64,000 nt of DNA, from NCBI GenBank assembly GCA_002238785.1, contig MPNA01000007.1:15583-79582 (forward strand). Reading direction: 5' to 3'. The notes beneath the pieces were generated by a model that had not been told where the DNA came from, did not search any database, and was given only the letters and a program-made list of their open reading frames with translations. Origin of the DNA: a bacterium OM1 bin76 (GTDB lineage Bacteria; Actinomycetota; Acidimicrobiia; Spongiisociales; ZC4RG35). The translations under genes were made by a program, and so were the position numbers. This document shows, piece by piece, positions 2,856-13,557 of the stretch (position 1 is the stretch's first letter; every line of letters begins with the position of its first letter).

Positions 2856-3125
2856 TTGCGTGAGCGTGCTGTGCGGATGGTCCTGGAAGGCGTCCGTGAG
2901 GGGGTGTATTCCTCCGAGTGGGCAGCGATCCGGGCGGTGGCGCAGATGCTGGGACCTACTCCCGAAACGGTTCGTAAGTGGGTTCGTAAGGCCGAATCGA
3001 GGGTCTCAGCGGCAGCGGTGGACCACAAACGTCGGATCGTTGAGTTGGAACGGGAGAACCGGGAGCTGCGGCGAGCGAACGAGATCTTGAAAGCTGCTTC
3101 GGCTTTTTTCGCGCGGGAGCCCTGA
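2856..3125 (+). CDS. IS3-family transposase OrfA (HTH / leucine-zipper)
   Basis: 89-aa MRERAVRMVLEGVREGVYSSEWAAIRAVAQMLGPTPETVRKWVRKAE...RIVELERENRELRRANEILKAASAFFA, a classic IS3 OrfA. Confidence 0.8.
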   Translation: MRERAVRMVLEGVREGVYSSEWAAIRAVAQMLGPTPETVRKWVRKAESRVSAAAVDHKRRIVELERENRELRRANEILKAASAFFAREP

Positions 3126-3143
3126 TCCGCGACCGCCAAGGTA

Positions 3144-4083
3144 GTGGCTTTCATCGATCGTTATCGGACCAGGTTCGGGATGCGGGCCGATCTGTCGGGT
3201 GCCTGGGCGAGCGCAATGTCGGAATGCGCCCCTTCCACCTACTACGCCTTCAAGTCCCGTCCGCCGTCAACAAGAGCCCAGCGCGACGGATGGCTTGTTG
3301 AACAGATCCGCCGCGTGCACCAGGAGAACTATGGGGTGTACGGCGCGGTGAAGGTATGGGCACAGTTGAACCGTGAAGGCACCCGAGTGGCGCGGTGCAC
3401 AGTGGAACGGCTGATGCGAAACACCGGTCCTGCGTGGTGTTTCCCGCGGGCGGCGCAAGGTGTGCACCACCGAACCCTCCGGGACTGACTATCCGGCTGA
3501 TCTGGTGGAACGGGACTTCACCGCCGGGGCGCCAGATCGTCTTTGGGTTGCCGATCTCACGTATATTCGCACGCGGGCTGGGTGGGTGTACGCGGCGTTC
3601 ATCATCGACGTGTACTCCAAGTTCATAGTGGGATGGCAGACCGCTACCACCCTCCGCGCCAGCCTGGCCGTGGACGCGTTGGAAATGGCTTTGGCCACCC
3701 GCCGGCGTCGAAACCCCGAGAAATTGATACATCATTCGGACAGGGGAAGCCAATATCTGTCCGTGCGGTACACCACCCGTTTGGCCGAAAGCCAGATCGT
3801 TTCCTCGGTGGGAAGCCGGGGCGACAGCCTGCGACAACGCCCTGGCCGAGACCACCATCGGTCTTTACAAGACCGAACTGATCAACCAACAGGGACCATG
3901 GCAAAACCTGGACCACACCACCTTCGCCACCCTCGAGTACATCGACTGGTACAACCACCGACGCCTACACGGAGGAATCACCCCCGACAACACCTACATC
4001 CCCCCCGCCGACCACGAAACCGCCTACCATCAAACCACCCCCAGAAAACCCGCAACCACACAAACAACCCACTCTCCATGAAA
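3144..4083 (+). pseudogene. IS3-family transposase OrfB (rve integrase core), internal frameshift near 3830
   Basis: DDE core motifs are present. The reading frame jumps between ORF 3460..4194 and the +1 frame, where the conserved C-terminal segment is encoded. Confidence 0.7.
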
Positions 4084-4174
4084 CCCGGGGAGGTTCAATC
4101 GAAGACAACCTCAATCTCATGCCCCCGACGACTACACAACTGGAACAGCGCCCACGACCTCTACAAATCAACTA

Positions 4175-4207
4175 GGGAGGGCAACCACCGCTAGAGCTTG
4201 CCCTCCC
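4175..4207. repeat. Perfect 10-bp inverted repeat (GGGAGGGCAA / TTGCCCTCCC) with a 13-nt loop at the IS3 right end
   Basis: Read directly from the sequence. No following T-run, so not a canonical intrinsic terminator. Confidence 0.5.
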
Positions 4208-4480: not shown

Positions 4481-5146
4481 TCACTCGTTTTCGAAAAACG
4501 TTGTTAGGTCGAAGGCATCGTTCAATATGGCGCCAACTATCAAACTCAACAAGGTGATGGCTGCCATACTCCACCATTTACGACGGTCCTCTAATGCGGA
4601 TACTCTCTCGGCAAGCGCAGTGGGATTATAGGTTGGGCCTCTGAGGTTACTGATGTGAGAATCGCTAATATTAACTGCATTCTGTCGCGGACCACAATAT
4701 AGATCCTCAGTTGCCTTGTCGAGAGAAACGTACCACAACTGGAAAGTCCGTTGGTCTTGTGTAAGGCTGATAGATTTGGAGCCTGCATTAAACACGGCGA
4801 AGATCAGTTTGCCTTTGTAGCCAGGATCAACGTGGAAGCCAGAGACATTTATCAATCCTTGCATCTTCTTGCTCGATTTCATTGACAGCAATCCGACGGC
4901 GTTGGCGGGGATTTCTACAACTTCGGAGATCAAGAGTTGAGCGAATTGTCCAGGGGGAATATTGACTCGTTCCTTATCATCTATTTTGACTCTGATCCTG
5001 GTTCCTGCGTTGGAACTATTGGTAACCCATGCTTCGTCTCCCATCGAGAGTTCATATGAACAGTTCTTAATGTGTGACTCATCGTATGGCTCGATCAAGC
5101 TCGGTAGTCTTGTCTTGAGGGTCTCACTACTCCAGAAACCGGACAT
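4481..5146 (-). CDS. dCTP deaminase/dUTPase-fold (Dcd-like) protein with a C-terminal transmembrane anchor; catalytic Glu replaced by Ala
   Basis: 221 aa. IEPYDESHIKNCSYELSMGDEAWV and GFHVDPGYKGKLIFAVFNAG align with Dcd motifs (E. coli: HRIDPGWSGCIVLEFYN), but the LEF glutamate is an alanine. C-terminal WWSMAAITLLSLIVGAILNDAF is a predicted TM helix. Strong AAGGAGA RBS upstream. AT-richer than the flanks. Confidence 0.7.
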   Translation of the reverse strand: MSGFWSSETLKTRLPSLIEPYDESHIKNCSYELSMGDEAWVTNSSNAGTRIRVKIDDKERVNIPPGQFAQLLISEVVEIPANAVGLLSMKSSKKMQGLINVSGFHVDPGYKGKLIFAVFNAGSKSISLTQDQRTFQLWYVSLDKATEDLYCGPRQNAVNISDSHISNLRGPTYNPTALAERVSALEDRRKWWSMAAITLLSLIVGAILNDAFDLTTFFENE

Positions 5147-5294
5147 TCCTATCTCCTTAGCTATTAGGACCTATCGATTCGGAAGGTGGAAAGGCCTTAC
5201 TATCTAACCGCCTGCTACATAGATTAGGATTACTTCGCGGTTTCGCAATTCCTACTTGTGCAATCCGGCTGTCTTGGGCTCCCTCCATGTCGTG

Positions 5295-5333
5295 GGAGGG
5301 GTGTTTTGCGGAGGGGTGTTTTGCGGAGGGGTC
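5295..5333. repeat. Tandem direct repeat, about 2.6 copies of the 15-mer GGAGGGGTGTTTTGC
   Basis: Read directly from the sequence, in the intergenic gap between the TS-like gene (5514) and the Dcd-like gene (5146). Confidence 0.6.
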
Positions 5334-5513
5334 TTGCCTAGTCCATAAGAAGGCACTCGCTGGAGTGCGACGCCGGGGCGGTGAACATAGTGTTAGGGGC
5401 GGTTCGACCGATTGCTCAGGTCTTTCGGGATCTTGGGGGTTCACAGGGCCGCTTTGGAATTGGGTGAGGGATAGCCTAGCTTGAGAAGCCAGCACAACCA
5501 GTTCCATCGCACC

Positions 5514-6569
5514 TCATCTTGCTCGGCCCACTGACCTGTATTGTTGACGTTCGTTCTGCGAGCTTATGCTAACCCTCCTCAACCAACGATGCCATAACTT
5601 TCTATACACAGGATTGGTGCAGGTGGCCATAGCGTGATCATGCATCTCATCCCACCCTAGCCTCCGTGCTATTTCACTGGCCAGCACGGCAAGCATGTTA
5701 CGGAATGCCTCCGGGCCTTCATCCCAACGGACGACTCTTTCCAGTTGTGGGCGCCGTAGGCCAGGCGCGATCAGTCGCTCCATCCTTCGGCCCAACTCTT
5801 TGAATGCCGCTTCTGATTTCTCCTTGGGGAGCGCAAGCGAGTCTGTGTTTCGTAGCCGGTTTGGCGGCGTCTGTGAGGCGAATACATTCTCTTCGTCATG
5901 TTCATACATGTGCAGGCTGTCGCTCAGTTGGTGATAGGGACCACAATCGACGCCAAGCCACCCGGCCACAACCTCTTGAAGACTGGTGAACTGTACGAAG
6001 TTGTGAGGAACCCCTAAGAAGAGATCATTGCTTCGTAGTACCTGAAGCCACTCCAGCTTCCCTTCGCGGACCTTCAACAGTGCGAACACATTGCAAGGGA
6101 CATCCCGACTGGTGGGCAAACCCTCAGGGTCGGGAAGGTCGACGGACGAGTCCCAGATTTGCAGTACAACCTGCCGGGTGTCCGGGTTACTGCTTAGCAC
6201 CTGATAGGCCCGAGTTAGTTGGTCTACCCCCATGTGGTAGCGGAGTCGATGCCCATAGGCCCCATGAAGGTGGGGGCCTTCTCCCACATAGTCGGAGAGT
6301 TTGCTGTTCCACGCCCGGAGGAAAGCAAGATCGTTACGACCTGTCATGATCCAAACGATCTCGGCAATGGCGAAGGCAACATTCATGGGAGGTTGGCGGG
6401 AAACCACCCATCGTTGTCGCGGATCATTGATGGTGATGGCTGCATGGAGGATTTCTTTGGTTGCACCACCTCTACTTGGTTGGAGGAGGACACCATGGCC
6501 TGCCCGGAATGCCTCCACGACTTGCTCCCAGACTTCATCTGCGTCTTGGCCTTCAAACGCCCTAATCAT
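5514..6569 (-). CDS. Thymidylate synthase-family (ThyA / pyrimidine-nucleotide C5 hydroxymethylase-like) protein, paralogue 1, with a ~90-aa C-terminal extension
   Basis: 351 aa, colinear with ThyA: AIAEIVWIMTGRNDL (ELLWFIKGSTN), GVDQLTRAYQVLSSNPDTRQVVLQIWD (DQL..IK.NPDSRRII.SAWN), VPCNVFALLKVREGKLEWLQVLRSNDLFLGVPHNFVQF ([36 protein letters not shown]). Nucleophile Cys retained. Asn equivalent to N177 retained. PCH becomes PCN and RR becomes RQ. Confidence 0.75.
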   Translation of the reverse strand: MIRAFEGQDADEVWEQVVEAFRAGHGVLLQPSRGGATKEILHAAITINDPRQRWVVSRQPPMNVAFAIAEIVWIMTGRNDLAFLRAWNSKLSDYVGEGPHLHGAYGHRLRYHMGVDQLTRAYQVLSSNPDTRQVVLQIWDSSVDLPDPEGLPTSRDVPCNVFALLKVREGKLEWLQVLRSNDLFLGVPHNFVQFTSLQEVVAGWLGVDCGPYHQLSDSLHMYEHDEENVFASQTPPNRLRNTDSLALPKEKSEAAFKELGRRMERLIAPGLRRPQLERVVRWDEGPEAFRNMLAVLASEIARRLGWDEMHDHAMATCTNPVYRKLWHRWLRRVSISSQNERQQYRSVGRAR

Positions 6570-8247
6570 GAGATGTTCCGAGAGGAGGTATCAGGCTGTT
6601 GATGCCCCACTTGGGGGGATACCAATACTCTATTGGCTCTGTTGAGGGGCGATAGATTTGCTTGATACGGGAACGGTTGCCGATGCCTTTGAAATCGGGA
6701 TGCTTAACGCGGGCATACTTTGAGACCTCGCAGAAGAGGTTCTGGCAGTCTATGAGCTGAAGTCTTCTGCCCCAAAGGTCTACAAACCGCAGGCCGAGGC
6801 GGTCGAACTCTTCTTCCTGGCGTTCGGTGACCATTCTTATGAGTTCAGCGTCGGTCAAACCGCCCAGGTCAGTGAAACATTTACGGACGCCGTCTATCGC
6901 CCCGGGGCCAGGAACGACGAACTCCATTTCTGAGAAGTCGATAACTTCGCTGTAGTTCAGGTCGGTCACGAATTGGTAGGCAAGGAAATCGCCGATGGAC
7001 GGGTAGGAGCGCAACAAACCGAAGGCGTCCCGCATCCTGCGTGTCCCTGCGATCCTCTTGGGTAACTCGTCTGCCATCATCCGCTCGATGAGCCGGAGAT
7101 GATTGCGGTGCTTTCGGGAATGTCCGAAGACGCGCCCGGCCGATGGCATAATGTAGGCGGCGGAATAGATTGGTCGACCCTCGGCGAGTGCTTGCGACAG
7201 CACCCCGTTGTAGGCGTCGAACGAGTATGACGAGTACTCAACATCCCCCAAGGCGGCTCTGAGCAGCTCCCAAGTCCCAATCCTGTTGAAAACCTTGAAT
7301 AGCAGGGTACGAAAGAACACTTCTTCTGAGGATTGTGGACCCTGGTAGATGACGTTGCGGATGAGGTACTGGCTTACCCGATCAGAGGCTCGGTATGCGT
7401 TAGTGAACTTGAAGCGGGCCAATATCGGGTCGTCCGTCCAGGGAGGTGAACAGCCTTCGAGTCGGCGAAAGAACACTTCTTGGCGTTTCACCGCGAACCG
7501 CCAATAGGTGTCATAGACAACGGTCGGCTTCGCCGGTGAGAGGCGTGGCATTTTCGGTGGCTGGAGTGTTCTGCCATCAAGGAGTGCTGGTTGGCCACTT
7601 AGCTGAGCCACTGCCGGAGAATCTTGCCGTTCGCTGAATCTGCGTACGGTAGAAATAATCGTCTTCCACGCCATGTCAAGGGCGTGCTCAACAGACGAGT
7701 CGTTGTGTAGCGTGACCACATGGGAGCGGATCTGTTCTCGCTTCGCCAGCGCCCGATACCCGTCCCGCAGGTCATCACCATTGTCTGAATCCGCACTCTC
7801 GCGCTCTACCAGAAACACCATGTCCGGCTTGATTTGCTTCCAGTGGAGTCGCTCCAGTTCGATCATCGCCTCCAACGAGGGCTCTGACACTCCAAATGCA
7901 CCGCCATAGACCCGTGTGGACCACCAGAAGCGGTCCAAGACTATCCAAGAGCCTGTACGGAGGGCAGGCAGGATGTGCTCTTCTACGGCCTCTATATGAG
8001 CCGCAATGTGCAGGATCTGAAGACTTGTCGCGTTGACCTTGCCGAGGCCAAAGCTGGGTGCGTCGTGGTGGAGGTCATAGACCAGACGGCCCAGAGAGCC
8101 TAACTGCCTCCCTGGAAAGGATAGGTTTTCGCAGGGAACGCCCGCCTCGTGGAGGCGGTTTGTGAATAGCTCGGCAAGGGTACTCTTACCGACGCCGTCG
8201 CGCCCCTCGAACACGATGAGCCTGCCCGGGGTTTGCTGCTCTGTCAT
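6562..8247 (-). CDS. Fusion protein: N-terminal dTMP-kinase-family P-loop (d)NMP kinase plus C-terminal ~340-aa domain of unknown function
   Basis: 561 aa. The N-terminus matches Tmk: LIVFEGRDGVGKSTLAELF (FIVIEGLEGAGKTT), LSFPGRQ (TREPGGT), ILHIAAHIEAVEEHILPALRTGSWIVLDRFWWSTRVYGG ([38 protein letters not shown]), PDMVFLVE. The C-terminal part (TVVYDTYWRFAVKRQEVFFRR...ILARFKFTNAYRASDRVSQYL...GIGNRSRIKQIYRPS) matched no family I could name. Its start overlaps the next gene (ATGA). Confidence 0.7.
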   Translation of the reverse strand: MTEQQTPGRLIVFEGRDGVGKSTLAELFTNRLHEAGVPCENLSFPGRQLGSLGRLVYDLHHDAPSFGLGKVNATSLQILHIAAHIEAVEEHILPALRTGSWIVLDRFWWSTRVYGGAFGVSEPSLEAMIELERLHWKQIKPDMVFLVERESADSDNGDDLRDGYRALAKREQIRSHVVTLHNDSSVEHALDMAWKTIISTVRRFSERQDSPAVAQLSGQPALLDGRTLQPPKMPRLSPAKPTVVYDTYWRFAVKRQEVFFRRLEGCSPPWTDDPILARFKFTNAYRASDRVSQYLIRNVIYQGPQSSEEVFFRTLLFKVFNRIGTWELLRAALGDVEYSSYSFDAYNGVLSQALAEGRPIYSAAYIMPSAGRVFGHSRKHRNHLRLIERMMADELPKRIAGTRRMRDAFGLLRSYPSIGDFLAYQFVTDLNYSEVIDFSEMEFVVPGPGAIDGVRKCFTDLGGLTDAELIRMVTERQEEEFDRLGLRFVDLWGRRLQLIDCQNLFCEVSKYARVKHPDFKGIGNRSRIKQIYRPSTEPIEYWYPPKWGINSLIPPLGTSHD

Positions 8248-9059
8248 TTGCCCGCCTTTAACTGTTCCAAGATTCTCTCGACATCCCGTGCCAGTTTCTG
8301 AAGGGATCTCTTTGTGCGATCGCGTTTCGCAGGACTTGCCACGCAGGTCACCTGGGTTAGCTGCCTACCCATCTCCTGGGCCATGAAACGGCCGAGCCGG
8401 CACAAGCCCAGATAGTTACCGTAGGCACGTTCATAGATGTACTGCGTGGCATAGAACCCTGTCACCGTCAACCCGTCTGAGCCTTGCTGCGCAAACGCTA
8501 CCTGTTGAAGGCAGGGAAAGCCTCTCATACGCTGATTGGTGTGGTCCCTGTGTGGGTCAAAGATCGCCGCTTGTAATGCTGACCTGCGATGGTTGCCTCT
8601 GTGCCATGTTTGGATGATGTGTTCCAGTTGGTTGACGCTGTCCCCGTTGGCGGCGTTGCGGCCGTAGGCGATGAGGCGTTGGAAGTAGACGCCGTTCCTG
8701 TTGCTAGCGTCCTTGAGCACACGCGGCATGATTTGTCTGTAACGTCGGTATAGCTGTTGACGATCTGCTTCCGGGTTCCAGAGCGAGACGGGGAAAATGG
8801 TGTTGGCGACCTTGTGACAGGAGAGGGATTTGGCTTCGGCACCCAAGGCATCATCAAGGAGTTCACGTATTGGTGCTACTTCCAGGGGCTCCCCATGGTC
8901 GAACCCGCGAATCACGACTGTTAGAGGCGCAATCTCACTCCTGGCCATCAAGTGGAGGAACGCCCTAGCCCAGGCGACGGAGAGGTTGCCCTCTTCAATC
9001 GTAAGTGATCTACCCATCCCCAGCTTCTTCCCAGTGCCGGTACAGGGCACGCCCCACAT
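8244..9059 (-). CDS. Thymidylate synthase-fold protein, paralogue 2 (divergent; most catalytic residues other than Cys are lost; C-terminally short)
   Basis: 271 aa. VPCTGTGKKLGMGRS (DRTGTGTLSIFGHQ), NQLEHIIQTWHRGNHRRSALQAAIFDP ([26 protein letters not shown]), GFPCLQQVAFAQQGSDGLTVTGFYATQ ([24 protein letters not shown]), NYLGLCRLGRFMAQE (NIASYALLVHMMAQ). Lacks the equivalents of R166, D169 and N177. The 5' end overlaps the ImmA gene. Confidence 0.6.
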   Translation of the reverse strand: MWGVPCTGTGKKLGMGRSLTIEEGNLSVAWARAFLHLMARSEIAPLTVVIRGFDHGEPLEVAPIRELLDDALGAEAKSLSCHKVANTIFPVSLWNPEADRQQLYRRYRQIMPRVLKDASNRNGVYFQRLIAYGRNAANGDSVNQLEHIIQTWHRGNHRRSALQAAIFDPHRDHTNQRMRGFPCLQQVAFAQQGSDGLTVTGFYATQYIYERAYGNYLGLCRLGRFMAQEMGRQLTQVTCVASPAKRDRTKRSLQKLARDVERILEQLKAGK

Positions 9060-9870
9060 ACCCGCGTCGCGAAACGCGGACGAACGTAGACCAAGAATTG
9101 CCGGCTTCCAGCCGGCCGACTCCTGGGCTGGTCGCTATGAAGATAGAGCCCTGCTCAATGTCTGAAAAGGGCTCGAGGCAGACACTCTCTGGCTGCGCTC
9201 CACCTAGGACCAATATGAGGTCACCCACTTCCACATCCACGGCCCTCCCGATCCAGTGGGTATCCAACACCAAGGCGGTCTGTGACGCGTACCACCCGAG
9301 GAGCAGCGATTGAGCTTTACGGGAGCCCACTCTCAACAGCGTCCTAGCCCGCATGCCCGGTAACACTTGGAGCGCGCTTCGCAGATGGTGAACCAGCGTC
9401 GCGTATCCAACGCCAAAGTAGCCGGCAACCATAAAAGCCTGCTCGGGTGTACAGTCCTCCATGCTCCACCCTCGAAGCGCAAATGCCTTGGATACCGCCA
9501 ACTTGGGCATGAGAAGAGCACCCGCAAAGCAATCCGCCATGAACTCCTTGGGATCGAAACGAGGGTTGTCCCATTGCCCAACCAGTTCGTCGATATCCAC
9601 TCCGTCACTCTGGTTGTGGTGACCAAGTTCGTGGGCACAGGTAAACGCCCGGCGGCCGGGTGGGCGTAACGAGGAGACGATAATAGTGGGAGTGGAAACA
9701 GATAGGTACATTCCCTCCATACTGGGAAGGTCCAGAAACCGAACCTCAATGCCAAGTTTCTGAGCGAGATCGTACACAGAGACAGCGTGGTCAAGCCCGT
9801 AGCCAACCGAAAGACGGGTACGGAGGGCCGCCGCCGTTGCCTCTCGGGCTATCAATCGCCGGTTGCTCAT
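9010..9870 (-). CDS. ImmA/IrrE-family (Peptidase_M78/DUF955, CapP-like) zinc metallopeptidase
   Basis: 286 aa with HEXXH at CAHELGHH. Sits immediately downstream of, and overlapping, an XRE HTH gene, the classic XRE/ImmA arrangement. Confidence 0.8.
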   Translation of the reverse strand: MSNRRLIAREATAAALRTRLSVGYGLDHAVSVYDLAQKLGIEVRFLDLPSMEGMYLSVSTPTIIVSSLRPPGRRAFTCAHELGHHNQSDGVDIDELVGQWDNPRFDPKEFMADCFAGALLMPKLAVSKAFALRGWSMEDCTPEQAFMVAGYFGVGYATLVHHLRSALQVLPGMRARTLLRVGSRKAQSLLLGWYASQTALVLDTHWIGRAVDVEVGDLILVLGGAQPESVCLEPFSDIEQGSIFIATSPGVGRLEAGNSWSTFVRVSRRGYVGRALYRHWEEAGDG

Positions 9871-10220
9871 TCGATGTGATTTCTCGGAGCGCGGAGCGCC
9901 TGGACAAGCTGGAGAATGCGGTCAAGGTCCTCTTCTCGCAACTTGCTCAACTCCCTCGCCGCTAGCTTCACGCGATCCGCAGCCAAGCTCGACTCCTCGT
10001 CCCCCTCACCCACGATCCAAGAAATACTGACCCCGTACATCTCAGCCAGCGCAGTGAGTTCCTCGGCAGATACCCTTCTGCGAGCTGCTTCGATCTCGGA
10101 AACCGTAGGACGGTGCCAGTCCAGACTCTTGGCTACCTGACCTTGGGTGAGACCTGCCATCTCTCTCGACAGGCGAAGACGTGATGCGATTGCCTTTCGC
10201 TTCTCTTCGTATTTGGTCAT
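9867..10220 (-). CDS. XRE-family helix-turn-helix transcriptional regulator (CapH/ImmR-like)
   Basis: 117 aa: ...LRLSREMAGLTQGQVAKSLDWHRPTVSEIEAARRRVSAEELTALAEMYGVSISWIV, an HTH_3-type motif. Confidence 0.8.
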   Translation of the reverse strand: MTKYEEKRKAIASRLRLSREMAGLTQGQVAKSLDWHRPTVSEIEAARRRVSAEELTALAEMYGVSISWIVGEGDEESSLAADRVKLAARELSKLREEDLDRILQLVQALRAPRNHIE

Positions 10221-10223
10221 CCT

Positions 10224-10508
10224 TTAGGCCTCAGAGCCGACATAGGAACAAAGGGAGTCCGCTATCTCGCCAACCGACAATGCACGCTTCCCATCCTCAG
10301 AAATGAAGGGGTTGTAGTTGCCGGGAAGCTCCACCTTTAGGGACTCCGAAAGCATGACGGTCGCTTCCACCCCGCTAAGGCTGTCGAAGCCCTCCACCCC
10401 AAACACCGGGCACGTTGACGCATCTATGCCAGCACTTGACCGCCCGCTCACCTCTTGGACCTCGACGATGACTTGAACCACCCTCTTCAGGATCTCTTGC
10501 TTGTTCAT
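10224..10508 (-). CDS. Small carrier-protein-like (ACP/PCP-fold) protein, first gene of the operon
   Basis: 94 aa. LKRVVQVIVEVQEV...FGVEGFDSLSGVEATVMLSESLKVELP resembles the ACP DSL phosphopantetheine-attachment motif and helix pattern. AGGAGG RBS 5-11 nt upstream of the ATG. This assignment is tentative. Confidence 0.4.
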   Translation of the reverse strand: MNKQEILKRVVQVIVEVQEVSGRSSAGIDASTCPVFGVEGFDSLSGVEATVMLSESLKVELPGNYNPFISEDGKRALSVGEIADSLCSYVGSEA

Positions 10509-10526
10509 AAGTACCTCCTTACCGCA

Positions 10527-10543
10527 GGTAAGATTATCTTACC
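10527..10543. promoter_or_regulatory. Perfect palindrome GGTAAGAT-T-ATCTTACC about 19 bp upstream of the operon start codon; candidate XRE operator
   Basis: Read directly from the sequence. 8-bp arms with a 1-nt spacer, just upstream of the RBS of the first gene of the minus-strand operon. Confidence 0.45.
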
Positions 10544-10853
10544 ATAAGAAGCCGAGCGGTCAAAACATAACCCAATATTGCTCACCGACAGACCGGTCCT
10601 AAAGGGACAGCGTTGTTGCCCGTCCCGCATTGCTTTGGTAGGCGGCGTTCGGGCTGGCTACCGTCAGGATGGGCGGTTCGGATGTATGCGGGGCTCCTGA
10701 TATTTGCTTGGAGAGCATCTTGATTGGGAGACAACGAGCTAGGTCCAGATCCGTGTTGGAGAGTGGTGGCAACAGGCCGCTGTAAGGAGTCGGCGATTCT
10801 TTGTCAAGAGTCTCCTGGGGGCGGGTGTAACTGTATCCTGACGGACTGTCATC

Positions 10854-11072
10854 TCATGGGCACGTACCCACAGTAGAAGGAGCCATCACCCGGAACGGCA
10901 ACACCCGACTGGTGGAAACCCGCCCGAAGCTGATCCACACCGTTCCATCCACCAACTGTTCCAACCCCAACCGATCAACCAACGTCCCCGCCGTTAACAA
11001 CCCGGCGTCAGCCACCAAAGACTCATCATCGAAAACCACCCCAAAACGATTCGATACTCTGCAATACTCCAC
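10854..11072 (-). pseudogene. Transposase N-terminal remnant (IS1380/IS4-like)
   Basis: 72 aa: NRFGVVFDDESLVADAGLLTAGTLVDRLGLEQLVD, typical of IS1380/IS4-family transposase N-termini. Nothing follows it. Confidence 0.45.
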
Positions 11073-11431
11073 TCACAGGAAGTGCCTCCCAACTGTGGAC
11101 CAACAGCTTCTTCGCTAACAGCTATTGTCCCAGATCAGAGGCACTCTCCGCCTCTATCCACCCACCCACCAACCACACCCCATCGGTGGATTGAGGCTAA
11201 GAATCCGTCAAATCGCTATTCTGACTTTACGGCCCCGCCGCCCTGTGTCTTCAACTGGACCTAATGTCTTTCTCTGTCGAAGACGAATGCCTGTACTCCA
11301 TCCGAACTGATGTACCCTCTCTCTCAGGTCAAGAGTGGAACAGAGCAGTCGGTCACGGTAAGTTTTGGTACTATAAGTAGTATTAAGGCACTCTACTGTG
11401 GCTGTGACCTGGGATTATGTTGAGATCATAG

Positions 11432-11523
11432 CGGAGGCGGACGGGAATCGAACCCGCCGGGGATCGTTTGACCCCCCACCGGTTTTGAAGACCGGGGAGC
11501 CCACCAGGCGCTCGCTCGCCTCC
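11432..11523 (-). tRNA. selC: tRNA-Sec (selC-like), anticodon UCA, 92 nt, class II
   Basis: Reverse complement: GGAGGCGAGCGAGCGCCTGGTGGGCTCCCCGGTCTTCAAAACCGGTGGGGGGTCAAACGATCCCCGGCGGGTTCGATTCCCGTCCGCCTCCG. Anticodon stem CCGGT/ACCGG with loop CUUCAAA (identical to the E. coli selC loop), a long variable arm, T-loop TTCGATT, and 13 nt (8+5) between T-loop and discriminator. The 8th acceptor pair is an A.C mismatch. CCA is not encoded. Confidence 0.7.
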
Positions 11524-11992: not shown

Positions 11993-12327
11993 GGCGTGGA
12001 CACGCTTCGGTGGGTGTCGTGATGAGGGTTGAGATGACGACGGTGAGGTCCACGATGGCAAGTCTTCGTAACGGGGGAACTGTCCGCCTGTAGGCCTCTT
12101 CAGTCTGCTGAGAGTCGTTCTGTCTGGTTACGCGTCTCGGGGCACTTCTTGGTTGATTTGTAACGGTTGTTCCGGGTGTCGTTGGGAGTTGTTCTGGCTT
12201 TTGCCCTGTACCGAGACGAAAAGTCGACTGAGGGGAGGACTCCAAACATTAAGTTATTAGTGTTTGTTTTCATAACTTAGTGTTGTGTAGAGGTGTTTTG
12301 TCACAGGACCTGTGCATACTGGTGGAT

Positions 12328-13557
12328 ATGAAAACAGAGTCTGCGAACCGGGCGGCCGTGAACAGGGCGCGTCTGCTGAGGCCTACCATGCCGGTGGCCG
12401 AGGCGTCGGTGGAACAGCTTAGACAGCGGATAAGGTCCACGATCCGCGTTCAGAACCAGGCTGCTGCGGACCGTGCCGAAGCGGTAGCGGAACTGGATCG
12501 ACGCCAGGGTACAGAATTGGTGGAAACCGTGCTGCGGGAGGATGGGCTGTTGGGCAGACGGCGGGCCCGGTCGGAGGTGGAAACTGCCAAAGAGTTGGAA
12601 GAGTTGCCCAAGACCCGGGAGGGTTTCCAAAAGGGAGACATCTCTGCGGACAACGCCCGCATCCTGGCCAGTGCTAACCAGCGGGGAACCATCAAAGAGG
12701 ACGAGTTGTTGGATGATGCCCGTTCTCAGTCTCCTGATAAGTTCGCCCGGTCGGTCCGAAAGCACGAACAACGACAGTCCCGTGATGATGGTGTTTCGAG
12801 GTTGGAGCATCAGCGTTCCCACCGGTTCGCGAAGATCACCACCGATGCCGACGATGGGATGACCGTGTTGTATGGGCGGTTCGACCCTGTTACGGGCGCT
12901 CGGATCGAAACGGCGGTGTCGGCGATGATGAACCAGTTGTGGCACAAAGAGGACCCCACCGATCGGGCCACGGCTCCACAGCGGATGGCCGACGCCCTAG
13001 CAAAACTTCTTACTCGTCAAGGGAAGGGCGGGGAGGGTCGTTCTCAGGATGTGCGACTGTTGTTGATCGCCGACTACGACGCGGTCAGCGGACGGTTGGG
13101 CAACCCCCGCTTGGAGAACGGCACCCCGGTTCCGGCGGGGACGTTGCGCCGTTTGGGGTGTGATGCTCAGGTACTGCCTGCTGTCTTCTCGGGTGGTTCG
13201 ATACCGCTGGACCTGGGGCGGGCCCGGCGTACCGCCAGCGGTTCCCAACGCGCTGCTTTGGTTGCCCGCGACAGACACTGTGTGGGTTGCGGCGCCAAAG
13301 CGTCCTGGTGTCAGGCTCACCATATCGTTCATTGGCAGGACGGAGGCCCCACCAGTTTGGAGAACATGTGCCTGCTGTGCAGCCGGTGTCACCACAAGGT
13401 TCATGACCAAGACTGGACCGTGCACCAAACCCCAACCGGGAAGTACACGCTACGTCGGCCGCCGATCACCGACTGGCGACGACCCTCCCGCCAAACCAAC
13501 CACCACCCCCGCCGTCGGCGACGCACCCGCAAACACCCCATCAAACAAAGAAAATGA
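12328..13557 (+). CDS. DUF222 + HNH endonuclease domain protein (REP13E12-like)
   Basis: C-terminal CVGCGAKASWCQAHHIVHWQDGGPTSLENMCLLCSRCHHKVH is an HNH motif. The N-terminal region is DUF222-like, as commonly seen in actinobacteria. Confidence 0.7.
   Translation: MKTESANRAAVNRARLLRPTMPVAEASVEQLRQRIRSTIRVQNQAAADRAEAVAELDRRQGTELVETVLREDGLLGRRRARSEVETAKELEELPKTREGFQKGDISADNARILASANQRGTIKEDELLDDARSQSPDKFARSVRKHEQRQSRDDGVSRLEHQRSHRFAKITTDADDGMTVLYGRFDPVTGARIETAVSAMMNQLWHKEDPTDRATAPQRMADALAKLLTRQGKGGEGRSQDVRLLLIADYDAVSGRLGNPRLENGTPVPAGTLRRLGCDAQVLPAVFSGGSIPLDLGRARRTASGSQRAALVARDRHCVGCGAKASWCQAHHIVHWQDGGPTSLENMCLLCSRCHHKVHDQDWTVHQTPTGKYTLRRPPITDWRRPSRQTNHHPRRRRRTRKHPIKQRK

Follow-up and report, generated by a model that had tools for sequence, protein, structure and literature searches.

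The 64,000-nt stretch of contig MPNA01000007.1 from the actinomycetote bacterium OM1 bin76 that was analysed here (the window) contains a seven-gene cassette that probably forms a separate subtype within the broad family to which the anti-phage system DS-4 belongs. It occupies positions 4481–10563 on the minus strand, promoter included, and combines homologues of enzymes from the phage 5-hydroxymethyl-deoxyuridine (5-hm-dU) pathway with a predicted XRE–ImmA switch. The reading developed below, which is given an even chance of being correct, is that of a horizontally mobile, normally repressed anti-phage cassette whose 5-hm-dU nucleotides would corrupt the DNA of the phage or the nucleotide pools. 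Gene content, folds, residue signatures, the operator, synteny and co-occurrence were established here; the catalytic steps and the antiviral outcome of this subtype are inferred, the mechanism by homology only. In the order of transcription, the genes and their domains are as follows, where TS denotes thymidylate synthase:

10224–10508, minus strand: carrier-protein-like protein, 94 aa, first in the operon, with a GFDS motif (Ser43)
9867–10220, minus strand: XRE-family helix-turn-helix (HTH) repressor, CapH-like, 117 aa (HTH_31, 6e-15; HTH_3, 8e-13)
9010–9870, minus strand: ImmA/IrrE-type M78 metallopeptidase, CapP-like, 286 aa (Peptidase_M78, 1e-18)
8244–9017, minus strand: TS-like 2, 257 aa, a divergent TS-fold protein whose reading frame could extend to 9059
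6562–8247, minus strand: kinase fusion protein (Thymidylate_kin, 3e-15, plus PF18723)
7633–8226, minus strand: thymidylate-kinase-fold domain of the fusion, aa 8–205 (Thymidylate_kin, PF02223)
6685–7521, minus strand: PF18723 'HMUDK_hel' domain of the fusion, aa 243–521 (E = 1.4e-111)
5514–6569, minus strand: TS-like 1 (TS1), 351 aa, dUMP-hydroxymethylase-like (Thymidylat_synt, 1e-21)
4481–5146, minus strand: dUTPase/Dcd-fold protein, 221 aa (DCD, PF22769, 5e-16; dUTPase, 4e-5)
4523–4576, minus strand: single transmembrane (TM) helix of the dUTPase-fold protein, approximately aa 191–208, following a coiled segment, at a hydrophobic C-terminus

All seven co-directional open reading frames (ORFs) reported by an initial annotation, made from the sequence alone, were recovered. 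The first six genes abut or overlap by 4–8 nt, and a gap of 367 nt precedes the last, dUTPase-fold gene. Most of the gene list was borne out by matches to the HTH_31, Peptidase_M78, Thymidylate_kin, Thymidylat_synt and DCD profiles, but the 340 C-terminal residues of the kinase, which had been described as an unknown domain, belong to PF18723. The cassette is horizontally acquired; it is AT-richer than its surroundings, as had been observed, with a G+C content (GC) of 47–58% in the operon against 60–68% in the flanks.

Relationship to DS-4 and to phage hypermodification clusters

The DefensePredictor study of DeWeirdt, Mahoney and Laub (Science 2026) validated 42 E. coli systems, and placed 5-hydroxymethyluracil kinase and thymidylate synthase among the domains newly implicated in defence (PMC13092281). 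One of these systems, DS-4 (working name NTTI), protects E. coli against phage by a mechanism that was not studied, and consists of a TS, an adenylate-type deoxynucleoside monophosphate (dNMP) kinase, a PF18723 protein, a ThsB-like TIR protein and Nmad2 (PMC13092281). The gene combination in the window had been taken for one that did not belong to any described system, a view that must be revised given the homology of both the TS (TS-like 1 against the DS-4 TS, phmmer E = 4.6e-14) and the PF18723 protein (window domain against DS-4 protein 3, 5e-30). A TS bearing a PCN motif and a long tail occurs in both systems, as does a PF18723 protein. Each also encodes a nucleotide kinase, which in DS-4 is of the DNMK type (PF21448) and a separate protein, whereas in the window it is of the Tmk type (PF02223) and fused. 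DS-4 further possesses TIR and Nmad2 but is without XRE, ImmA, carrier, TS-like 2 and dUTPase-fold genes. No match to the TIR and Nmad2 genes of DS-4 was found anywhere in the 64 kb window, and a literature search returned no paper describing the window subtype or a mechanism for it.

Phages M6, PaMx11, ViI, SP10 and PhiW-14 likewise encode dUMP-hydroxymethylase-type TS, PF18723 proteins, nucleotide kinases and dUTP/dTTP hydrolases that supply a 5-hm-dU pathway (Lee et al. 2018, 2021; PMC5889632, PMC8989533), and the pathway roles of the phage dTTPase/dUTPase, hydroxymethylase and dNMP kinase are documented (PMC8989533, PMC13458397). In contrast to the window, these phage clusters also contain PF18748, PF18724, pyridoxal-phosphate or radical-SAM tailoring enzymes and a phage polymerase; searches of the seven proteins gave no match to PF18748 (the P-loop 5-hmdU DNA kinase) or to PF18724 (aGPT-Pplase2). 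The window cassette, unlike the phage clusters, is chromosomal and repressor-controlled, while TS-like 2, the carrier and the membrane anchoring of the dUTPase-fold protein are bacteria-specific features. A profile scan of 2.9 million viral contigs produced 59 loci, in 49 of which PF18723 adjoined a TS1-like gene. The earlier proposal that the cassette consists of homologues of phage enzymes for 5-hmdU was supported. The module of XRE, ImmA, TS-like 2 and carrier occurred in just one of the 59 (L081, an IMG/VR contig), and a single-protein scan for the cassette in viral contigs recovered nothing.

The two thymidylate synthase-like proteins

The best match of TS-like 1 in the PDB was the hydroxymethylase MilA (1e-25, compared with about 1e-14 for ThyA), and its best phage matches were dUMP hydroxymethylases of PaMx11-like, SP-10 and ViI-like phages, at 33–38% identity. 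Relative to ThyA, TS-like 1 carries H147N, W80L and W83Y; H147N and the loss of W80 and W83 are common to the DS-4 TS and a phage enzyme. All pyrimidine-activating residues of ThyA are present, including Asn177, which indicates that the substrate would be uracil rather than cytosine. Although MilA is the closest solved relative, this uracil-type Asn distinguishes TS-like 1 from MilA/BcmA-type hydroxymethylases and from phage dCMP hydroxylases, TS-fold enzymes whose product is not dTMP. By homology and residue signature, TS-like 1 groups with phage dUMP hydroxymethylases and not with ThyA, and a hydroxymethylase role is predicted for it. The initial annotation had correctly noticed PCN in place of PCH, RQ in place of RR and a long tail, and had judged that neither paralogue looked like a housekeeping ThyA. 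Both judgements stand: the three substitutions set TS-like 1 apart from the housekeeping class, and the NCBIfam TS scores of the cassette proteins all fell far below the equivalog cut-offs.

TS-like 2 most likely begins at Met15 (nt 9017) rather than at nt 9059, as do an identical database protein and most homologues. A Pfam search with this protein gave no match, and the NCBIfam archaeal TS model matched at 2.5e-11, below its cut-off. Its earlier assignment to the TS fold was nevertheless supported by an AlphaFold2 model (pLDDT 83), for which Foldseek returned TS, MilA and dCMP hydroxylase at a probability of 1.0 (TM-score 0.5–0.57); its match to MilA and to AfhB, a phage dCMP hydroxylase, is no worse than that to TS. 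The Cys of a GFPC motif and an NHRR motif are invariant in the family. Profile alignments of TS-like 2 with ThyA and with TS-like 1 gave non-significant scores, so that only local motif matches were usable; on such a non-significant alignment, the segment containing Asn177 is apparently absent.

The kinase fusion and PF18723

The N-terminal part of the fusion has a true Tmk fold, in agreement with its initial description as dTMP-kinase-like. In phages, the 5-hmdU DNA kinase was shown to be a P-loop protein in its own right (Lee et al., PMC8989533), and an affinity between it and the Tmk domain was rejected, hhalign finding only the P-loop in common between the window domain and an M6-like DNA kinase (probability 8%).

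The PF18723 domain is helical, with a glycosylase-like fold. Bacterial and phage members alike keep a GPG turn, Cys506-Glu507, Lys510 and Arg513 unchanged, and because this Cys-Glu...Lys...Arg cluster is invariant, PF18723 is suggested to be an enzyme. Profile searching of PDB sequences identified no solved relative, and the sole match was at the level of the fold, to DUF2419. Alignment of the PF18723 family with a PF18724 protein (amino-acid:DNA transferase) by hhalign was negative, and PF18723 was rejected as a detectable PF18724 homologue. In Bordetella phage CN2, which is M6-like, a PF18723 gene directly follows a 5-hmdU DNA kinase of the validated type, and so corresponds by synteny to M6 gp55. 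The repeated fusion partners of PF18723 are Tmk and, at loci L033, L039, L042, L045 and L052, MazG-MazG_C instead (e.g., L042 7932–9923). DefensePredictor highlights a predicted, unvalidated system comprising MazG-C, dUTPase and an 'aGPT-Pplase' domain, which may be the same as these MazG-PF18723 loci.

The predicted XRE–ImmA switch and its operator

The promoter region upstream of the carrier-like gene contains the following features:

10514–10563, minus strand: promoter and operator, as read from the sequence
10558–10563, minus strand: -35 box TTGACC, followed by a 16-nt spacer
10536–10541, minus strand: -10 box TAAGAT, inside the palindrome
10527–10543, minus strand: palindrome GGTAAGAtaaTCTTACC, covering the -10 box
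10517–10523, minus strand: third GTAAG half-site, overlapping the ribosome-binding site AAGGAGG

The candidate target of XRE, i.e., the predicted operator, is the stretch GGTAAGATAATCTTACCTGCGGTAAGG. The motif GTAAG-N5-CTTAC occurs once in the window against an expectation of 0.01. About 30 related loci, belonging to Chloroflexota, Acidobacteriota, Thermodesulfobacteriota, Planctomycetota, Bacteroidota, Cyanobacteria and Actinomycetota, show the same layout at a distance of 25–50 nt ahead of their carrier gene. This conservation at the same place is strong evidence that the XRE protein would autorepress the operon through the GTAAG operator.

The comparison with CapH and CapP made by the initial annotation was well founded, since both PADLOC models match (capH, 7e-12; capP, 5e-17). 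An HTH repressor followed by an M78 peptidase with a HEXXH motif (HELGH, read from the translation) stands at the head of the operon, and a palindromic operator is predicted across the promoter of the operon under control. The C-terminal 120 aa or so of ImmA have no family assignment. The window switch differs from CapH/CapP in governing a nucleotide-modification cassette instead of CBASS, and in being preceded by a carrier-like gene. A further difference is seen in a sister clade, where ImmA is longer (e.g., L052 2667–3314, L064 10778–11425 and L140–L142 6187–6897). In L140–L142 it bears a precomputed match to the chagasin-type inhibitor domain Inhibitor_I42. In this clade the next gene after ImmA encodes a papain-like C1 peptidase, and the two could form a protease-inhibitor pair inside the switch.

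Distribution and co-occurrence among related loci

Database searches identified more than 8000 relatives of the fused kinase, and a scan of one genome per species yielded 67 loci in many phyla. The ORFs of these loci were annotated with the window proteins and the five DS-4 proteins, and co-occurrence was counted over the 47 species-representative loci that had 4 kb or more of sequence to either side. XRE and ImmA were both present at 32 of these and absent from 15. TS-like 2 was encoded at all 32 XRE+ImmA loci and at only 1 of the other 15, and the carrier-like gene at 28 and none, respectively. Other components were less regular: TS1 was found at 18 of the 32 XRE+ImmA loci, the dUTPase-fold protein at 11, a phosphopantetheinyl transferase (PPTase) at 8 and a papain-like peptidase at 8. 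Among the 15 loci without the switch, TIR and Nmad2 were present in 10. PF18723 thus pairs with one of two nearly exclusive modules, either the carrier-XRE-ImmA-TS2 quartet or TIR-Nmad2, a pattern that is new here; in L011, L017 and L071, a window-type cassette lies next to TIR-Nmad2 genes of the DS-4 type. In one widespread variant the genes run carrier-like, TS2, PPTase, XRE, ImmA with the chagasin-type domain, papain-like peptidase, dUTPase-fold, Tmk and TS1.

Synteny is conserved in many genomes, sometimes within defence islands. Some bacterial copies adjoin type I or type IIG restriction-modification, Gabija, SoFic or PD-T4-4 genes. In a 4.3-Mb chromosome, another copy has housekeeping genes on either side. 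Integrase, replication and structural genes were not seen alongside the cassette at the loci inspected. Separately, TIR_2 and SLOG-type LD_cluster2 genes were observed in some PF18723 loci (L143 8978–12205 and L144 13–867), linking the PF18723 family to other nucleotide-centred conflict systems.

The carrier-like and dUTPase-fold proteins

The first protein of the operon had been described as ACP-like. In favour of this, the serine of its GFDS motif is kept in homologues and aligns with Ser36 of E. coli AcpP, the site of phosphopantetheine attachment; however, the PP-binding match lies below threshold (E = 0.042, score 14.6 against a Pfam cut-off of 20.8). No PPTase gene was found in the 64 kb window. 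Nonetheless, the link between carrier and PPTase holds at the level of the family, because a PF01648 gene that passes the Pfam threshold lies within 8 of the 32 XRE+ImmA cassettes. In related cassettes its usual place is immediately upstream of the membrane dUTPase-fold gene (e.g., L033 2942–3325, L042 9936–10319, L052 6090–6473, L144 3313–3840 and L142 4267–4740).

The last gene had been annotated as a TM-anchored protein of the dCTP-deaminase/dUTPase fold. Its fold and TM helix were confirmed, and Dcd-like chains in the PDB match it by sequence at 1e-15, but the position of the deaminase catalytic residue, Glu138 in E. coli Dcd, is occupied by Ala in the window protein and by Ala or Ser in all 18 family members aligned. 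As this Glu is absent across the aligned family, the dCTP-deaminase reading was rejected and the protein is taken to be dUTPase-like; the dUTPase-type motif VDPGY/F is kept. Nor does the annotated precedent apply, namely that Dcd-like enzymes are established dNTP-depletion effectors: the PADLOC dCTP-deaminase defence sequence (DefensePredictor supplement) is annotated as Cytidylate_kin plus APOBEC-like, a different fold, and no PADLOC model matched the dUTPase-fold protein of the window. In three further sampled contexts, homologues of this protein were all within PF18723 systems. From one related locus to another the gene changes in position and strand, so it may form a transcription unit of its own. 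Promoter- and terminator-like matches in the gap between it and TS-like 1 were weak and at chance level; the gap also contains a tandem repeat, CCCTCCGCAAAACAC, at 5294–5330 (two copies and a partial third), and some assemblies call a 116-aa ORF in it that looks spurious.

Genomic setting

The cassette sits in an island with insertion sequence (IS) remains beside selC, as initially described, and the island is bordered by the following gene, given for context only:

11431–11523, minus strand: tRNA-SeC (ARAGORN)

Transposase fragments lie on both sides (466–1291, 1742–2845, 2856–4194 and 10854–11072); these are IS3-type HTH_Tnp_1/HTH_21 pieces and other degenerate ORFs, and no integrase was seen among them. 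The tRNA gene was considered as a recurrent integration site and rejected, as it was not found beside the cassette in any of 40 related loci. In the 4.3-Mb chromosome mentioned above it is selA that adjoins the cassette (L075 12871–14010), whereas selC does so in the window; since the tRNA does not recur in those 40 loci, the proximity of these two selenocysteine genes is probably a coincidence. Just past the tRNA is a DUF222-HNH endonuclease gene (12280–13557). At the left edge of the window, at about 255–425, are a HepT-like (HEPN) gene and a nucleotidyltransferase partner, a likely toxin-antitoxin pair; this position was obtained by coordinate mapping only, from 18593–18763 of L077, an identical NCBI contig. 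Two contigs of metagenome-assembled genomes at NCBI, MKWU01000180.1 and JAPONN010000023.1, are collinear with the window.

Proposed mechanism and alternative explanations

Under the proposed mechanism, the XRE repressor would bind the operator, with its three GTAAG half-sites, over the -10 box and ribosome-binding site, until DNA damage or infection led ImmA to inactivate it, as CapP does CapH. The induced enzymes would then rebuild the phage pre-replicative 5-hydroxymethyl-dU pathway in the cell. The dUTPase-fold membrane protein might hydrolyse dUTP and/or dTTP; TS-like 1, to judge from homology and its residue signature, would turn dUMP into 5-hm-dUMP, which would be phosphorylated by the Tmk-fold domain and then completed to 5-hm-dUTP by the nucleoside diphosphate kinase of the host. 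Thereafter 5-hm-dU may replace T in replicating phage DNA, or nucleotide pools may be distorted, while the glycosylase-like PF18723 domain, TS-like 2 and the carrier could process the base or nucleotide further, with blocked phage replication or abortive infection as the expected outcome. Two options had been offered in the initial annotation. An inducible, nucleotide-based defence fits the better of the two, whereas the marking of host DNA is disfavoured because a default-repressed operon without a restriction partner is poorly suited to marking its own genome.

Several observations weigh against the proposed mechanism. The window is without the TIR and Nmad2 genes of DS-4, so that the defence conferred by DS-4 is not simply transferable, and defence appears to be known for DS-4 only. 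The phage PF18723 protein in the position of M6 gp55 was dispensable in vitro, gp51 and gp54 alone having sufficed in lysate reactions that excluded gp55 (Lee et al., PMC8989533). A 5-hm-dU route cannot be the whole story, given that the invariant enzyme is TS-like 2, while TS1 is present in only 18 and the dUTPase-fold protein in only 11 of the 32 loci of this subtype. The core chemistry may differ from the model, since TS1 and the dUTPase-fold protein are optional and TS-like 2 and the carrier are not; nor does the model give the carrier any clear role. Finally, the survey of neighbouring defence genes was made without a control set.

The cassette might instead act by depletion only, causing abortive infection as the dUTPase-fold and TS-like enzymes drain dTTP, dUTP or dUMP, with no modified base entering DNA. 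Depletion of dNTPs is an established principle of defence; moreover, the operon is kept repressed, and the dUTPase-fold protein and, in sister loci, a MazG pyrophosphohydrolase are recurrent. This is thought unlikely, however, as the dUTPase-fold gene is missing from two thirds of loci, and depletion leaves unexplained both a dedicated Tmk-fold kinase, which would drive the product to the triphosphate, and PF18723 with its invariant Cys-Glu, along with the carrier and PPTase. Ranked after depletion, and so also unlikely, is a chemistry centred on the carrier, in which TS-like 2 or PF18723 would couple its phosphopantetheine thiol, acting as the nucleophile, to the C5-methylene either of a uracil nucleotide or of DNA-borne 5-hm-dU. 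The covalent adducts of protein with nucleotide or with DNA would then be the effector and would stall the replication of the phage. Thiols trap the exocyclic-methylene intermediate of thymidylate synthase, the DS serine is conserved, and the carrier occurs only at loci with TS-like 2 and XRE/ImmA (28/32 vs 0/15); a PPTase is encoded inside 8 of 32 cassettes, and the carrier, TS2 and PPTase genes are contiguous in the widespread variant. Phage PF18724 proteins are reported to use an active-site thiolate on a pyrimidine base, replacing 5-phosphomethyl by an amino acid (PMC8989533), an analogy that holds by genomic association only, since similarity between PF18723 and PF18724 was not detected by hhalign. 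Set against these points, the adduct chemistry is a purely inferential proposal, no PPTase is encoded in the window, the carrier match falls short of the Pfam threshold, and the carrier could belong to the regulatory switch instead. Were the proposal true, carrier proteins and the TS fold would gain a new use, and PF18723 its first function.

Rather improbable, and ranked above a housekeeping role only, is a reading in which the cassette would serve a prophage, satellite or integrative element as an early module that, once ImmA/XRE has been induced, hypermodifies the element's own DNA against restriction, as M6- and ViI-like phages do. XRE–ImmA pairs also drive the lysogeny switches of phages and of integrative and conjugative elements, thymidine-hypermodifying phages typically encode PF18723 and TS1 homologues, the IS-rich island that harbours the window copy adjoins a tRNA gene, and one copy is on the IMG/VR contig. 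Yet the inspected loci contain no integrase, replication or structural genes, one copy stands between housekeeping genes of a chromosome, and PF18724 and PF18748, which define phage hypermodification clusters, are absent; the module occurs in 1 of 59 viral as opposed to 32 of 47 bacterial loci, and the adjacency to tRNA is not recurrent. Housekeeping or stress-backup thymidylate synthesis by ThyA and Tmk paralogues is highly improbable and was rejected. Although the TS and Tmk folds retain most catalytic residues, TS1 has a hydroxymethylase-type signature and affinity, all NCBIfam scores lie below the equivalog cut-offs, the kinase is fused to PF18723, and the cassette is patchily distributed across phyla, of atypical GC for its host and under repressor control.

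Implications

Defence through the making of modified nucleotides, rather than through cutting or depleting them, is barely explored. If the favoured reading of an inducible, 5-hm-dU-producing anti-phage cassette is correct, the window represents a second and apparently commoner subtype beside DS-4, with an inducible switch and a conserved operator. Its three unexplained parts, namely a second TS-fold enzyme, a carrier that has its own transferase in some genomes and a membrane dUTPase-fold protein, would translate into testable steps. The cassette may also offer a route to the function of PF18723, a domain found in hundreds of hypermodifying phages.

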